From NCBI RefSeq assembly GCF_003334315.1, contig NZ_QOWR01000009.1: a stretch of DNA of 64,000 nucleotides; one strand, written 5' to 3'. Positions 12,673 through 18,727 of the stretch are shown piece by piece; within the stretch, counting starts at the first letter, position 1; each line of letters begins with the position of its first letter. The notes beneath the pieces are model-generated. The model ran no database searches and was not told the DNA's origin. It worked only from the letters and a program-made list of their open reading frames with translations. This stretch comes from Escherichia coli. GTDB taxonomy: Bacteria; Pseudomonadota; Gammaproteobacteria; Enterobacterales; Enterobacteriaceae. A program made the translations under genes and the position numbers.

Positions 12673-12890
12673 CTCAATCCTTTAGGCTTGCATGTTATCT
12701 TCAGCCCAGGATGATTCTTAAATCAGCTATTTCCGCTGACTCTCTGCTCGCTAAGGATGCTTTTAGGGCATCCTTTCATTTACACTTTTTACGAAATCAT
12801 GGGATCACTAACAAAATATCGCTTGTCAGTTATATTGTATGGCAGGAAAGATATGCGACTGATATTACAGATCCCCAAAGTGGAGAGTTT

Positions 12891-13229
12891 ATGACCATTA
12901 AAAATAAGATGTTGCTGGGTGCGCTTTTGCTGGTTACCAGTGCCGCCTGGGCCGCACCAGCCACCGCGGGTTCGACCAATACCTCGGGAATTTCTAAGTA
13001 TGAGTTAAGCAGTTTCATTGCTGACTTTAAGCATTTCAAACCAGGGGACACCGTACCAGAAATGTACCGTACCGATGAGTACAACATTAAGCAGTGGCAG
13101 TTGCGTAACCTGCCCGCACCTGACGCCGGAACCCACTGGACCTATATGGGTGGCGCGTACGTGTTGATCAGCGACACCGACGGAAAAATCATTAAAGCCT
13201 ACGACGGTGAGATTTTTTATCATCGCTAA
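12891..13229 (+). CDS. rcnB: Periplasmic protein modulating Ni/Co efflux
   Basis: 112 aa with signal peptide (MTIKNKMLLGALLLVTSAAWA). Start set at the internal ATG of ORF 12711..13229. Confidence 0.8.
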   Translation: MTIKNKMLLGALLLVTSAAWAAPATAGSTNTSGISKYELSSFIADFKHFKPGDTVPEMYRTDEYNIKQWQLRNLPAPDAGTHWTYMGGAYVLISDTDGKIIKAYDGEIFYHR

Positions 13230-13240
13230 AAAAAGCCCCC

Positions 13241-13259
13241 TCGGAGAGAGGGGGAAATG
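13241..13259. terminator. Bidirectional terminator hairpin between rcnB and yehA
   Basis: CCCCCTC-ggaga-GAGGGGG stem-loop flanked by an A-run and T-rich sequence, between convergent genes. Confidence 0.45.
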
Positions 13260-13310: not shown

Positions 13311-14345
13311 TTAGTCGTATTTCACGTTGATTAATGCGGTTGCTTCCAGTGCGCCAGATTTAACTTTGTTTGTATCGTAGACGTAGTAACTGGCTGTTAT
13401 CGGAATTGAAACCGTTGTATCTGTAAGTTTTGACTTTGCCGCAATTTCTTTTAAATTTGTGTATCCTTTACTGCTGTTAGTGATATTTAAAAGTGTGACT
13501 GGCGAACTATTACTTTCAAGAATAAATCCTACGCCATTATCTTCCGCACCTTTCAGTATTGTGTTGCTGTTGGTTAACAAGTCAGAACTTGATAAATACA
13601 CCTGCATTTTCCGTGATGTTTGATTTTGTTGACCTAATAAATTTTTACAACGCAGAATAATATCCCCTTGTTTACTATTTATTGTTGCTTTGTTACCTGT
13701 GGCTGGTAATTGTGAAACGGGAATACTGTCTAAAGTAATTAATAAATCGTCCGGTTTGCAGGTTGTGGTTATCGGGTTGTATGACAATGTCAGATTAAAG
13801 GAATAGACACCTGCATTTTGTGCCAATGCATTTCTGTAGCTATTTACACATGCATCCCATGACTTGCCACCTAATAAACACAGTAGAAATTGTACTGCGG
13901 CACTCCCGCGTGTCGATGATGAAGCACTGGATAATGTTGCAACACCATTAATCATCACTGAACCGCCGCCCCCCGCAGAAACATTCACTTTTGCATTACT
14001 GGCCGCAGGTGTCACCGTTACCGAATAACCATTGGTGAAACTGGTCTGATTATTTGACAACGTGATGTTATTTTTATTGGTCCATTCAAAATGTAAATTT
14101 AATTTAATGGTATCGTTATAAAGTCCAACAATAATATCCGACGGGCTCATAGGGGTGATAGTATTTGTACTTACGCATGACGAATCATTAAAATTATGCT
14201 CATATGTCGCCATTTGTGTTTGAGTAAGTGCAAAACCCCCCTGAACAACCAAGTTGTGCTGAACAGATAACTCACTATAACATGCCGCATAGCTCACAGG
14301 CATAACCATCATCATTAATATAAATAGCATTATGCGAATTTCCAT
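13311..14345 (-). CDS. yehA: Fimbrial adhesin-like (tip) subunit of the Yeh chaperone-usher fimbriae
   Basis: 344 aa with signal peptide; last gene of the yehDCBA operon. Confidence 0.85.
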   Translation of the reverse strand: MEIRIMLFILMMMVMPVSYAACYSELSVQHNLVVQGGFALTQTQMATYEHNFNDSSCVSTNTITPMSPSDIIVGLYNDTIKLNLHFEWTNKNNITLSNNQTSFTNGYSVTVTPAASNAKVNVSAGGGGSVMINGVATLSSASSSTRGSAAVQFLLCLLGGKSWDACVNSYRNALAQNAGVYSFNLTLSYNPITTTCKPDDLLITLDSIPVSQLPATGNKATINSKQGDIILRCKNLLGQQNQTSRKMQVYLSSSDLLTNSNTILKGAEDNGVGFILESNSSPVTLLNITNSSKGYTNLKEIAAKSKLTDTTVSIPITASYYVYDTNKVKSGALEATALINVKYD

Positions 14346-14360
14346 AGAACCACCTGACTA

Positions 14361-16841
14361 TTACTGGCAAATATAATTTCTACTTTCATCAATCTCTTTA
14401 CCGAAGGTGATTGTGCATGAAAGTCCTTGTTGCTTATCAATTGCCACATTAACCGATGGCGGTACTTCATTGGTGCGAATAAATAACTGACTTCCCTGGC
14501 CGACAACGCCAATATTATGACCATGGATATCATTGACTTCATAACCAAACGTTAATGATTGCCCATCTGCTCTTAACGCTTTTATAAACCATGGCTTGCG
14601 CTGATCGGTATCAAAATTAACAAGTACAACCGCGCCGCGATAAGGGGCGGCAATTTTCCGGTTGCCACGTAATTCTGCTTCGCTATCGCTTTGCGACACA
14701 TCCAGCATCAGGTGATTTTCCCGATAAGGTGTCATTCCGTCGTATATCACCACTCCATTACGGTTTGTTGTGCGATATTTTTGCCCATTGACATAAGCAT
14801 CTTTAATTCCTGGCGCATTCATCACAGCAAACGTTTCGGAAAGACGGTTCGCCAGATTAACGCCACCCGACCAGGCGACAATGCCCCCTAAAACACTGGC
14901 TCCAGCCTGTCGATAAGTACTCGACTGACTATAACTGCCATTCACTGTCGCAACCGGCGCGTTCCAGGTCAAATTCGCCCCAGCTGTCGTTTCATTTCCC
15001 TGATGTTGATGACTCAGGTTGACACCATAATTGAACTGATCCCGACTCCCTACTGTTCCTGATAATCCCGTATTATTTGAGGCAAACCCCTGATCATCAA
15101 ACGTCGTTGAGTTAGACATATATATTTGCCGACGAGGCGTCGAAACGTCATCACCCCAATCAAAGGGAATCGATATAAAAATATTAAAACGTTTCTCTTC
15201 ATGATGATTCTCGTCATAAGCCTGGCTTGCCGCGAGGGTATAGCTTATCCGTCGCAGGTTGTTGGAATAACTCAACTGATAATCCTTACTACTGCCGCTA
15301 CGCCCCCAGTAATCTCGCCATAACGTACTTAATGACACAGACCCCCAACCTTCTGGCAATGACTGGCTCATATTGGCGGAAAAGCTATTTTTGCGGCCAA
15401 AATCGTTCTGGTAATAATCGGCAATGTCATAGACATCGTTTTCATCACGGCGATAATTATCTTTATTGTTTGCCCAAACGTGATCGTTAAATGTCCGGTA
15501 ATCACGCGACGAATAACGCCAGGCCGCCAGACCAAAACGCGTCGACGTTTGGCTCACAAATTTGTTGTAGGCAATTTGATAACTTTGCCCGTCAAACACA
15601 TCGCCGTTGTCTTGTTTACTATGCGACTTAGTGGCATCGACGGAAATGGCACCAATGCGTGTATTCCAGCCAGCCCCCAAAGTAAACGCGTAATAATTAT
15701 TCGCGACCATCGAGCCACCATACAGCGTCAATAAATTATTAAAACCATACTGATAACCCGCCTGGACAAAATCACTTTGTTTGCTCGCCCCTTCAATATG
15801 GCTACGACCCGCCGCTAAATCATATTTCGACACGCCGGGTTGCAGCATATTTGGCACCGCTGCATAAGGCACCAGATAGGTGGTTACCGAGCCGTCCGCC
15901 TCTTTCACGCTGACATCAAGATCTGCTCCACCACCGGCCAACTGCAAATCTGTAATCGCGAACGGGCCAGGAGGAACCTCTTTCTGATAAACCACAAAAC
16001 CATTCTGTTCAATAGTTACCAGCGCGTTACTCTGAGCAATCCCCTGCACCCGTGGCGTAAAATTTTGTTTCGAGTTAGGCAACATCTGCATATCACGAAA
16101 CAACCGCACACCTCTGAAGCGAACAGAATCAAAAATATCGCTTGATGTGTACATATCACCCACGCGAAGCGTGCCGAGAAGTTGGGCAAATCCACGTTCC
16201 AGATACAGGGTATTGCTTTTCCACACCCCTGGATTGTTATTTGTTTTACTGAAACTGGCATCAGAATGCAGTTGCCACCCCAGTAAATTTAACCCGCTGT
16301 TAAAACGTACATATGTACTCTTGTTATTACCCGACGCTTTATAGTCGCTGTAATACTGACTCAGATAATAAGAGGTATAAAACGCATTAATACCCCGCTC
16401 CCAGTTTTCCGGTGGAACATAGCCACTTTCCAGTTCTTCCACCCAGGCCTGCGGGACACTGAAATCGAGACGAAAAACCCCGATATCCCAGGTATAGCTC
16501 CCACCCTGAACAAGTTGCTCAAATGTTAAACATTGCTTACCGCTGGCGAAGTTATCGCTATTAATGCCTAACCGCTTGATAACTTCTCTTGATAAACATG
16601 TTTCTTGCGGGTTGTCTTTAACAATAATCTCATATTTCCCGCGCCATTGCTTATTGACATAAATATCGATGTCATACTGCCCCGGTAAGGGTTGATTATC
16701 ATCAAGACGAATATTTGCAACCTGCTGGTCTTTCATTCCACCTATCATAAAATGGGTATCAAAGGTTTCTTCAGCTGCATAAGCTTCAATGCCGAGCAAT
16801 AACGCTACGATTGCTGATGCAAGTGGGGTCATTCTCAACAT
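14361..16841 (-). CDS. yehB: Fimbrial outer-membrane usher
   Basis: About 826 aa usher-family protein. Start could alternatively be the upstream ATG at 16856. Confidence 0.85.
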   Translation of the reverse strand: MLRMTPLASAIVALLLGIEAYAAEETFDTHFMIGGMKDQQVANIRLDDNQPLPGQYDIDIYVNKQWRGKYEIIVKDNPQETCLSREVIKRLGINSDNFASGKQCLTFEQLVQGGSYTWDIGVFRLDFSVPQAWVEELESGYVPPENWERGINAFYTSYYLSQYYSDYKASGNNKSTYVRFNSGLNLLGWQLHSDASFSKTNNNPGVWKSNTLYLERGFAQLLGTLRVGDMYTSSDIFDSVRFRGVRLFRDMQMLPNSKQNFTPRVQGIAQSNALVTIEQNGFVVYQKEVPPGPFAITDLQLAGGGADLDVSVKEADGSVTTYLVPYAAVPNMLQPGVSKYDLAAGRSHIEGASKQSDFVQAGYQYGFNNLLTLYGGSMVANNYYAFTLGAGWNTRIGAISVDATKSHSKQDNGDVFDGQSYQIAYNKFVSQTSTRFGLAAWRYSSRDYRTFNDHVWANNKDNYRRDENDVYDIADYYQNDFGRKNSFSANMSQSLPEGWGSVSLSTLWRDYWGRSGSSKDYQLSYSNNLRRISYTLAASQAYDENHHEEKRFNIFISIPFDWGDDVSTPRRQIYMSNSTTFDDQGFASNNTGLSGTVGSRDQFNYGVNLSHQHQGNETTAGANLTWNAPVATVNGSYSQSSTYRQAGASVLGGIVAWSGGVNLANRLSETFAVMNAPGIKDAYVNGQKYRTTNRNGVVIYDGMTPYRENHLMLDVSQSDSEAELRGNRKIAAPYRGAVVLVNFDTDQRKPWFIKALRADGQSLTFGYEVNDIHGHNIGVVGQGSQLFIRTNEVPPSVNVAIDKQQGLSCTITFGKEIDESRNYICQ

Positions 16842-16856: not shown

Positions 16857-17531
16857 TTAAATTTTGTCACTAATATAGTTGCCATGGTCATCGATAATGG
16901 TCAGATGCCAGTTATTTGCATTATTACTTTTGACATTAACACTCTGACTTTCTAAGGGGGCAATCATAATAGTTTCATAATTGACTTTGACATTATTAGC
17001 TTTGACATCCGAAATCGTCACCCAATTAGCTGAGTCATTTTTTATCACCAAACCATTGCCACTGCGATTTACCAGCAATTTTTTAAATGTCGCTTTATTT
17101 ACCGGAGCAATACCCGCTGGCCGGTAAAACAACTTAATTCTGTTTTGCATCGCAAACTTCAGTGCATTCTTACCTTCTTGCTCTGGACTATTTGGTGGAA
17201 TATCCAGAACATTCAGATAAAAAATGCTTTCTTTATTAGTGGGCAGTTTATTCGGCATAGTTTTGATTTTTACTTGCTGCCCGGAATTTGCCCCTATTTT
17301 TGCCACTGGTGGCGTTAACATGAAAGGAACCTGAATTTTTTCTGGTGGTAATGACGTATCGCCATCATCAATCCACGCCTGCAGCAGCGAAGAACGGTTT
17401 CCCTGGTTCATCAACTGCACCATCACTTCTTTATTTTCTGCCGGGTAAATAATGCGCGTCCCGTAGATAACAATTCCGGCATGTGCAGGAAGGACCATAG
17501 AAAAAATGAGTAAAGATAATAATCCTTTCAT
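16857..17531 (-). CDS. yehC: Fimbrial periplasmic chaperone (PapD-like)
   Basis: PapD-like chaperone sequence. Start chosen at 17531 (MKGLLSLL... signal peptide) because a strong AAGAGGA Shine-Dalgarno sits 5-6 nt upstream. The ORF-track start at 17576 would place the intergenic hairpin inside the coding sequence. Confidence 0.75.
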   Translation of the reverse strand: MKGLLSLLIFSMVLPAHAGIVIYGTRIIYPAENKEVMVQLMNQGNRSSLLQAWIDDGDTSLPPEKIQVPFMLTPPVAKIGANSGQQVKIKTMPNKLPTNKESIFYLNVLDIPPNSPEQEGKNALKFAMQNRIKLFYRPAGIAPVNKATFKKLLVNRSGNGLVIKNDSANWVTISDVKANNVKVNYETIMIAPLESQSVNVKSNNANNWHLTIIDDHGNYISDKI

Positions 17532-17553
17532 TTTAATTCCTCTTAAATTAAAA

Positions 17554-17574
17554 GGCCGCCATGGGATAGCGGCC
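17554..17574 (-). promoter_or_regulatory. Intercistronic stem-loop between yehD and yehC
   Basis: GGCCGC-catgggata-GCGGCC inverted repeat between the major-subunit and chaperone genes; partial terminator/mRNA-stability elements at this position are typical of chaperone-usher operons. Confidence 0.4.
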
Positions 17575-17610
17575 ATGTTTATTACCTGGAGAAACTTACA
17601 ATTTTATTTA

Positions 17611-18153
17611 TTAATCCTGCGCCACACGCATAACCAGAGAAGATAACACATCACCTGATTGCACTGAGTTATCTGTCAGTTTCAGGTATTTTGCTTTAAA
17701 CGGAATAGCATATTGACCTTCCGCTGTTTTATAACTCTCAATGTTAAAAGGTGCAGAAACATCCAGGACATCGCTGTTATCACCTAAATAGAGATAGTAA
17801 CCCACGGTATCGTTGCTACTGGCTATCGCCTTATCGTTACCGGTTATTTTATCGTTGGTAATCAACGAGAGTTTTACACCAGCAACTTCTTTCGGGCAGC
17901 TAATTTTTAACATGCTGCTGGTTACACCGACTGCATCATCATAGGTAGAATATTTAGCTTTACCTTCAAAGACACTGGTTGGTACAGTCGGCATATTAAT
18001 ACTTACTGAATCACCACCCGCTTCGAATTTACACGGAGATTCTGCAATATTCCCCTTAATAGTTAATGTTCCGGTATCAACGTCTGCAGCAAATACTCCA
18101 GCGCTCATAAAAAAAGAAGAAAAGACAGCGGCAGCAATAATTGAACGTTTCAT
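17611..18153 (-). CDS. yehD: Fimbrial major subunit (fimbrillin)
   Basis: 180 aa with signal peptide and fimbrillin-like C-terminus. Confidence 0.85.
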   Translation of the reverse strand: MKRSIIAAAVFSSFFMSAGVFAADVDTGTLTIKGNIAESPCKFEAGGDSVSINMPTVPTSVFEGKAKYSTYDDAVGVTSSMLKISCPKEVAGVKLSLITNDKITGNDKAIASSNDTVGYYLYLGDNSDVLDVSAPFNIESYKTAEGQYAIPFKAKYLKLTDNSVQSGDVLSSLVMRVAQD

Positions 18154-18380
18154 AATATGTTCCTTAATAAAATTTATTTTTGGTTGTTAAGAGTCTGTAT
18201 CTCTTGGAAACAAATTTCTCACATCAAAAAAGTTGCCGCAATGTAAACACATTGTTTTATTGATTTAAAAAAAATTAACAATTGCAATATAAATACAACA
18301 AATATTTAAGAGTATTAACTATTTATCGCATCTATCAATTAATGTAGATTTATGTAAATGGTATTGTTGATATCAATAAA
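18154..18380 (-). promoter_or_regulatory. AT-rich upstream/promoter region of the yehDCBA fimbrial operon
   Basis: More than 75% A+T with A/T tracts; this is the kind of curved AT-rich DNA that is typically silenced by H-NS. Confidence 0.4.
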
Positions 18381-18420
18381 AAAGCCGAAATCATTTATAT
18401 AAATGATTTCGGCTTTCTAA
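18381..18420 (-). terminator. Intrinsic terminator downstream of yehE
   Basis: AGCCGAAATCATTT-ataaa-AATGATTTCGGCT hairpin with flanking A/T runs. Confidence 0.5.
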
Positions 18421-18445: not shown

Positions 18446-18727
18446 TTAATCGTAGCGATTTAACACGATTCGACGTTTGCTATCGCTACCTGCAACAACC
18501 ACTTCTGTCGTTACACCTTTGACGGGCGAAGAAAACAGATGACGGGTGTCAACATTATACGTTAACTGACCACAATGCTGTTGAGGTTGACCATTAACCA
18601 TAGCCATACTGCATGTTGGGGGACTGATCCTGCCATTAATCGCTAATGTGGCAGTCTCTGAAGAGAATGCGGGAGAAGCCAATCCATAGGCAAGAAAAAT
18701 AATTCCTGACAGCCAATACTTATTCAT
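18446..18727 (-). CDS. yehE: Small secreted protein of unknown function
   Basis: 93 aa with signal peptide. Confidence 0.8.
   Translation of the reverse strand: MNKYWLSGIIFLAYGLASPAFSSETATLAINGRISPPTCSMAMVNGQPQQHCGQLTYNVDTRHLFSSPVKGVTTEVVVAGSDSKRRIVLNRYD

Follow-up and report, generated by a model that had tools for sequence, protein, structure and literature searches.

Two questions are raised by the short stretch of DNA between yehD and yehC in Escherichia coli: at which ATG does translation of yehC begin, and what is the role of the GC-rich inverted repeat that lies between the two candidate start codons? We addressed both in a stretch of 64,000 nucleotides (hereafter the window; contig NZ_QOWR01000009.1 of assembly GCF_003334315.1), where the two genes are read from the minus strand. 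The original prediction held that a hairpin, a ribosome-binding site and ATG 17531 follow one another in this order, and that the hairpin acts as a partial terminator or stability element setting the ratio of pilus subunit to chaperone.

The yeh operon and its first spacer

The yehDCBA genes form a chaperone-usher pilus operon of the gamma-4 Yeh/Stc type. Genes for the major subunit, a PapD-like chaperone, an usher and a tip adhesin succeed one another in that order, as established by NCBIfam matches for four of four proteins, the MG1655 annotation, and chaperone matches in the PDB. The window's YehD matches the NCBIfam model 'fimbrial protein YehD' with an E value of 1e-32. Its score of 113 bits is below the equivalog cut-off of 136, and the best models for YehC also score below cut-off (StcB, 344 bits against 500; PRK15218, 320 against 372); the curated YehD and YehC models seem to be built on somewhat different sequences. 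The gap-free identity to the matching 8 kb of MG1655 is 99.56%, so the window comes from a strain that is K-12-like, yet not MG1655. The operon has been described previously (PMC12778044), under a UPEC nomenclature that follows the order of transcription (yehA subunit, yehB chaperone, yehC usher, yehD adhesin) and runs opposite to the K-12 lettering adopted here. In laboratory K-12, the operon lies within a static silenced protein-occupancy domain (bioRxiv 10.1101/2024.06.20.599902). The yehD-yehC junction has no match in 514 of 5426 complete E. coli genomes; in 32 genomes of this set the locus is present with none of the three loop classes described below, and in genome 2018-11-1BCC the match is limited to the first 55 nt, under the name 'type 1 fimbrial protein'. 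These junction-less and aberrant genomes suggest that the locus has been lost or replaced in some lineages.

Two further minus-strand hairpins are found at the borders of the operon. The first, at 18379-18418 between yehE (18446-18727) and yehD, is perfect (AAAGCCGAAATCATTTA-TATA-TAAATGATTTCGGCTTT, -20 to -22 kcal/mol) and runs into TTTTTT just past the yehE stop, followed by ~225 nt of very AT-rich DNA before yehD. It looks like a strong intrinsic terminator, and the arrangement suggests that yehE is a separate transcription unit, although one preprint writes 'yehEDCBA operon'. The second, at 13236-13254, is GC-rich (CCCCCTCTCTCCGAGGGGG then CTTTTTTT) and is located 56 nt past the yehA stop and 7 nt past that of rcnB, a convergent gene. 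It probably terminates the yeh operon and may be common to yehA and rcnB.

The features of the spacer itself are collected in Table 1. Read on the minus strand, every element lies at the coordinates originally assigned to it: the GGCCGC...GCGGCC hairpin is present, with a 9-bp stem that is longer than first described, and AAGAGGA stands just before ATG 17531. The 5' arm of the stem (17574-17566, GGCCGCUAU) is joined to the 3' arm (17562-17554, AUGGCGGCC) by a loop of sequence CCC (17565-17563). The stem contains six G-C pairs and a single U-G wobble at 17568/17560, and its first paired base is the G of the upstream ATG.

Table 1. Coordinates of the yeh genes and of the elements of the yehD-yehC spacer in the window
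Feature	Position	Strand	Remarks
yehD	17611..18153	-	major fimbrial subunit gene, 180 aa; first of yehDCBA; ORF and MG1655 b2111
yehD stop codon TAA	17613..17611	-	second TAA adjoins (tandem TAATAA)
yehD-yehC spacer	17532-17610	-	79 nt
yehD 3' UTR, AU-rich	17575..17610	-	36 nt; single-stranded, unpaired in the centroid fold
upstream ATG	17574..17576	-	spurious; opens the 239-aa YehC of the curated K-12 entry
stem-loop	17554..17574	-	9 bp, -14.1 kcal/mol
U-rich tract UUUUAAUUU	17545..17553	-	directly 3' of the stem; predicted site of transcript 3' ends
yehC Shine-Dalgarno AAGAGGA	17538..17544	-	6 nt before ATG 17531
downstream ATG, yehC start	17531..17529	-	
signal peptide MKGLLSLLIFSMVLPAHA	17478..17531	-	18 residues; by inspection
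yehC	16857..17531	-	PapD-like periplasmic chaperone gene, 224 aa; start codon ATG 17531-17529
yehB	16841..14361	-	usher gene, 826 aa
yehA	14345..13311	-	tip adhesin gene

An AU-only inverted repeat of 8 nt (17546-17553 and 17531-17538; UUUUAAUU and AAUUAAAA) places the yehC Shine-Dalgarno sequence in a loop. We considered this second hairpin as a translational element and rejected it: its stability is -3.2 kcal/mol in K-12-like strains, and no fold forms in the strains with a CCCC or CUCC loop in the main hairpin (GGCAUUAAG). The AU-only repeat is probably fortuitous.

The start codon of yehC

The open-reading-frame track of the window does open yehC at 17576, which is simply the first ATG after a stop. 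This is also the start given in the curated MG1655 record (b2110; 720 nt, 239 aa). Four lines of evidence strongly support the order hairpin, ribosome-binding site, ATG 17531: the reading frame, the PGAP annotation, the leaders of related chaperones, and the N-termini of mature chaperones.

First: the reading frame. Alignment of E. coli strains revealed a length difference of one nucleotide that falls exactly within the hairpin loop. We typed the loop in complete genomes with short queries in which all 28-mer seeds span it. The 4880 typed E. coli genomes divide into three loop classes, CCC (2017 genomes), CCCC (2353) and CUCC (510, including Nissle 1917 and the type strain), while the query for the loop variant of SCPM-O-B-8794 gave zero matches among complete E. 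coli genomes. Within these classes, the upstream ATG is in frame with yehC solely when the loop has 3 nt; because the loop has four instead, it is out of frame in 2863 of the 4880 genomes (59%). The frame then reads ATG GCC GCT ATC CCC ATG GCG GCC TTT TAA (MAAIPMAAF-stop), which makes a long YehC impossible in those 2863 genomes, though yehC is intact there. The 3-nt loop looks derived, because loops in sister Escherichia species have at least 4 nt, and the in-frame fusion to the upstream ATG would be an accident of one lineage.

Second: the RefSeq annotation. PGAP calls a 675-nt yehC in six of the six records read directly; the spacer is free of features in 13 further RefSeq records listed, and is thus left uncoded in all 19 records from strains other than K-12. 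Among the records inspected, the 720-nt yehC is confined to the curated MG1655 entry.

Third: the leader. We compared 36 loci, namely the window and 35 relatives from Escherichia, Salmonella, Citrobacter, Superficieibacter, Klebsiella, Pseudescherichia, Edwardsiella and Pluralibacter. The ATG next to the Shine-Dalgarno sequence opens a signal peptide of 18-19 residues beginning with MK or MR in 36 of 36, with the conserved GTR motif at residue 24 (34 loci) or 25 (two loci); an upstream in-frame start is found in only a few of them. By inspection, the 224-aa YehC of the window carries a Sec signal peptide of a length that is conserved in all 36 loci: the 18-residue leader MK-GLLSLLIFSMVLP-AHA, standing before a G, combines a basic n-region (K), a hydrophobic core and an AxA site. 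Cleavage is predicted after AHA, which would leave a mature protein beginning with GIVIYGTR.

Fourth: the mature chaperones. Residue 1 of mature FimC and SfaE, as seen in PDB chains, aligns with residue 34 of the long form, which is the G after AHA, so that the signal peptide of the short form has 18 residues. The short YehC aligns from 1 to 224 with positions 1-224 of the StcB profile, and related NCBIfam chaperone profiles likewise align from position 1.

The ribosome-binding sites point to ATG 17531 as well. The duplex with the 3' end of 16S rRNA has a predicted energy of -6.0 kcal/mol for ATG 17531, within the top 7% of ATGs in the window, against a weaker -3.8 kcal/mol (top 20%) for ATG 17576. 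The AAGAGG core is invariant across ten Escherichia sequences.

These data bear directly on the competing proposal that YehC is translated from ATG 17576 as a 239-aa protein, with the hairpin inside the coding sequence and perhaps limiting initiation. In its favour, both the window and MG1655 have an open frame from 17576, E1V33 and MOD1-EC7003 likewise show an in-frame ATG at -48, and a signal peptide of 33 residues with a basic n-region is conceivable. All the same, this proposal is very improbable: not only is the upstream ATG frameshifted away from an otherwise intact yehC in the majority of typed E. coli and replaced by CTG in E. whittamii, but it has the weaker Shine-Dalgarno sequence and its G is paired in the stem. 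Moreover, the paired compensatory changes in the stem arms (see below) are non-synonymous in the long-form frame, and the 18-19 residue leader is common to all 36 loci. We conclude that yehC starts at ATG 17531, not at ATG 17576, that the long form is essentially excluded, and that the 79-nt spacer is non-coding.

Other codons near the hairpin were also inspected. In non-coli Escherichia (loci L009, L010, L011 and L033), an in-frame ATG or TTG occurs inside the hairpin at -48, -33 or -21, with the frame open for 54-90 nt and the 18-residue leader still kept. Some of these lineages keep the codon at -48 or -33, so the frame by itself cannot exclude longer forms there; we take these codons to be by-products of a stem that contains CATGG. 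In strains with a 4-nt loop, the nine-codon open reading frame that begins at the upstream ATG ends 16 nt before the yehC ATG. It was considered as a coupling device and rejected, since E. whittamii has CTG and E. albertii TTG in place of its start codon, and Nissle has lost its weak AGG.

Over-extension by the open-reading-frame list recurs elsewhere in the window. The list opens yehB at TTG 16856, abutting the yehC stop, where MG1655 uses ATG 16841; the 826-aa protein from ATG 16841 aligns over 1-826 of 826 positions with the NCBIfam usher profile, and the TTG start is an over-extension of the same kind as that of yehC. Likewise, rcnB (plus strand, 12711-13229) is listed with 172 aa from ATG 12711, compared with 339 nt and 112 aa in MG1655, and is another over-extended call.

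Pairing in the spacer hairpin

The stability of the hairpin was compared with that of the best simple hairpin in 5000 dinucleotide-preserving shuffles of the 79-nt spacer. Only eight shuffles were as stable (mean -3.3, sd 2.6 kcal/mol) and the real hairpin surpassed the other 4992. The minimum free energy of the whole 106-nt region is not significant against shuffles (z = -0.57), a statistic that is uninformative here because it dilutes a 21-nt element. Over both strands of the 64-kb window, nine hairpins have an energy of -12 kcal/mol or lower and at least five T in the next 8 nt.

Base pairing in the hairpin is under selection. We aligned ten Escherichia sequences, comprising six E. coli variants, E. 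albertii, E. whittamii and two cryptic lineages, and found that 95.9% of cells form standard pairs, compared with at most 63% when the 3' partners are slid out of register. Double compensatory changes occur at three pairs and account for four doubly changed cells: G-C is replaced by A-U at 17573/17555 in two species and at 17570/17558 in one species, and the third is one outer pair. The covariation score was reached by none of 500 shuffles, in a sample that is small and to which the usual caveats on relatedness apply.

Beyond Escherichia, the hairpin persists while its sequence does not. The original prediction called for comparison with other chaperone-usher operons, and in our alignment-free survey each of the 36 loci proved to hold, between its subunit and chaperone genes, a contiguous hairpin with an energy between -12 and -23 kcal/mol. 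The hairpin sequences are unrelated among loci (GGCCGC.., ACCGGCAG.., GCCGGTG.., ATCGGCGGC.., CCCGGCAG.., GGGACTCC..); the upstream gene encodes a detectable YehD homologue in 35 loci; and, as a control, only three of 3075 length-matched coding segments from flanking genes are as stable. Other pilus operons of K-12 share the feature: the elfA-elfD and yraH-yraI spacers hold hairpins of -17.9 and -23.0 kcal/mol, yadN-yadV has a 13-bp stem followed by UUUUAAUUAA, and fimA-fimI also has a hairpin. In more distant loci (L042-L086), a strong hairpin lies within 170 nt upstream of the chaperone match in 22 of 43, a count to be read against noisy controls in GC-rich genomes. The rule that a hairpin separates subunit from chaperone gene is therefore firm within the Enterobacteriaceae set alone. 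The yeh hairpin has the position and properties of a stem-loop that follows a major subunit gene: it lies in the spacer, on the coding strand, and its pairing is kept by selection.

A DNA-level explanation, by which the inverted repeat would have no RNA role and be a palindrome that binds a protein, a REP-like element or a product of chance, deserves next to no credence in view of these observations. The repeat does enclose the palindromes CCATGG and GGCC/GCGGCC, and a simple terminator scan of a 6.2-kb region returned seven sites against 5.5 expected, which is no overall excess. Shuffles rarely reproduce the hairpin, however, and relatives keep the pairing, not the sequence, at the same position, as fits an RNA structure rather than a sequence-specific protein site. 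Nor is the hairpin a repeat of the REP or BIME type, since it was found at one place per genome in all 4880 genomes typed and such elements are multi-copy.

A proposed role in termination, 3'-end protection and the subunit-to-chaperone ratio

Which function does the selected structure serve? In E. coli, the element resembles a Rho-independent attenuator within an operon, with a U-rich tract adjoining a GC-rich stem of 9 bp. The loop measures 3 nt here and 4 nt in other E. coli, and the stem-loop has a stability of -14.1 to -14.5 kcal/mol. The first 8 nt of the tract UUUUAAUUU include six T, and its T-tail score is 3.67; on the same scale, the terminator at the end of the operon scores 2.9 and a perfect T8 scores 5.1. 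UUUUAA(U/C)U adjoins the stem on its 3' side in every E. coli loop class, and the scores are 3.3-3.8. The element differs from a canonical terminator in that its U-tract is interrupted by AA and lacks conservation beyond E. coli. Scores of 0.25-0.64, which amount to absence of the U-tract, were obtained for E. albertii, E. whittamii and two cryptic Escherichia lineages, and these four non-coli lineages have a stronger hairpin, of -17 to -19 kcal/mol. Of the 36 loci, 14 carry five T or more in the 8 nt that follow the stem. Since only these have a U-rich tail, canonical termination cannot be the conserved function, and the absence of the U-tract from the sister species identifies the hairpin as the conserved property. 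As far as these comparisons indicate, the conserved function is more probably protection of the 3' end after processing, to which E. coli and some other lineages may have added canonical termination.

Termination at this place, if it occurs, can only be partial. A gap of 9 nt separates the stem from the yehC ribosome-binding site, and no promoter-like site was seen between the two, so that expression of yehCBA depends on polymerases that pass the stem; with the next Shine-Dalgarno sequence this close, the element must be leaky for the operon to function. We propose that the stem-loop and UUUUAAUUU would act as a leaky intrinsic terminator during transcription of yehDCBA. A share of the polymerases would stop at the spacer and release a short, yehD-only mRNA, which the 3' hairpin would shield from 3'-to-5' exonucleases, while the remaining polymerases would read through to yehC, yehB and yehA. 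The outcome would be more mRNA for the subunit, of which many copies are needed, than for the chaperone, usher and adhesin. This functional reading fits the covariation, the recurrence of the hairpin in all 36 loci, the U-tract of E. coli and the precedents from pap and fim. Taken as a whole, the combination of the spacer anatomy, a start at 17531 and a leaky terminator or 3'-end protector yielding excess yehD mRNA is probable, and from it we infer, as originally suggested, that the hairpin sets the ratio of subunit to chaperone as a partial terminator or stabilising element.

The precedents share the position of the hairpin and differ in other respects. According to PMC5927463, which cites Baga 1988 and Bricker & Belasco 1999, the papA mRNA ends in an RNase-resistant terminator structure; as in yeh, the stem-loop comes directly after the major subunit gene, and there it ends and protects the abundant subunit mRNA, with the downstream genes at a lower level. 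The pap operon differs in having a regulator gene, papB, upstream and a cut by RNase E that is accompanied by a protective 5' hairpin, and the pap element has been shown experimentally, whereas that of yeh is predicted. In fim, where fimA mRNA exceeds fimI ~8-fold and fimC ~12-fold (PMC10673952), the fimA-fimI hairpin is placed as in yeh, behind the major subunit gene; unlike that of yeh, it is imperfect and has no U-tract, and the two spacers have no sequence similarity. By its sequence, the yeh element qualifies as a candidate for both kinds of structure, the post-subunit stem-loop and the attenuating terminator.

An unlikely reading, and the main live alternative, is that the hairpin is a decay barrier alone: an endonuclease such as RNase E would cut downstream, 3' exonucleases would degrade the RNA as far as the stem, and a stable yehD mRNA would remain, with no termination involved. 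By stopping 3' exonucleases, intercistronic stem-loops of this kind make the upstream cistron more abundant. PMC5927463 counts puf, the malE-malF REP and CFA/I among the classical examples of such decay terminators, cites differential decay in the CFA/I operon, and, with the references given there, treats the principle as established for pap and CFA/I. The REP elements in this group are multi-copy and in this respect differ from the single-copy yeh hairpin. The survey of relatives agrees with a barrier, because the hairpin is conserved and the U-tract is not (a U-rich tail in 14 of 36 loci and in no sister Escherichia); on the other side, the tail that every E. coli loop class retains after the stem has the architecture of an intrinsic terminator. 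Barrier and termination are compatible roles.

The fim spacer suggests one more possibility, since it is processed into the trans-acting sRNA FimR2 (PMC9723502). The yehD 3' UTR and hairpin (~17610-17550) could similarly be released as a stable sRNA when the Yeh pilus is switched on, and act in trans on adhesin, motility or biofilm genes. FimR2, a 35-nt product dependent on RNase E, comes from the equivalent spacer (PMC9723502) and is annotated in MG1655 as b4838 (locus L088, 1175-1209, fimA-fimI spacer), and the yehD 3' UTR has a suitable layout, an AU-rich single-stranded stretch followed by a stable hairpin. The yeh spacer nevertheless bears no sequence resemblance to FimR2, its single-stranded part varies between Escherichia species, and it has no Rfam family match above threshold: a scan at a permissive threshold returned sub-threshold chance matches alone (SCARNA15, CyaR and DnaX), the best being CyaR with 19.5 bits against a threshold of 47. 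We regard such an sRNA, argued by analogy with fim, as quite improbable; were it real, the post-subunit hairpins of cryptic pilus operons would constitute a family of cross-talk regulators. No feature is annotated in the yehD-yehC spacer of the curated MG1655 record.

The literature covered contains no description of a terminator or 3' end at yehD or in the yehD-yehC spacer, and a paper on riboswitch entropy lists windows upstream and downstream of the yeh operon, not this spacer (PMC4448311). The hairpin thus appears to be previously undescribed, and it is an ordinary one that would not surprise a specialist. The short start of yehC is already present in the RefSeq pipeline and is not in the curated K-12 entry; b2110 should lose 15 codons, from 239 to 224 aa, in line with what the pipeline has elsewhere, a correction that touches signal-peptide predictions and constructs for expressing the Yeh chaperone. 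The spacer offers a ready-made candidate attenuator, and deleting or keeping the hairpin should alter the ratio of subunit to chaperone when the cryptic yeh operon is expressed. That a stem-loop follows the major subunit gene in pilus operons is already known as a rule; to it, the yeh spacer adds one more case and a survey of 36 loci.
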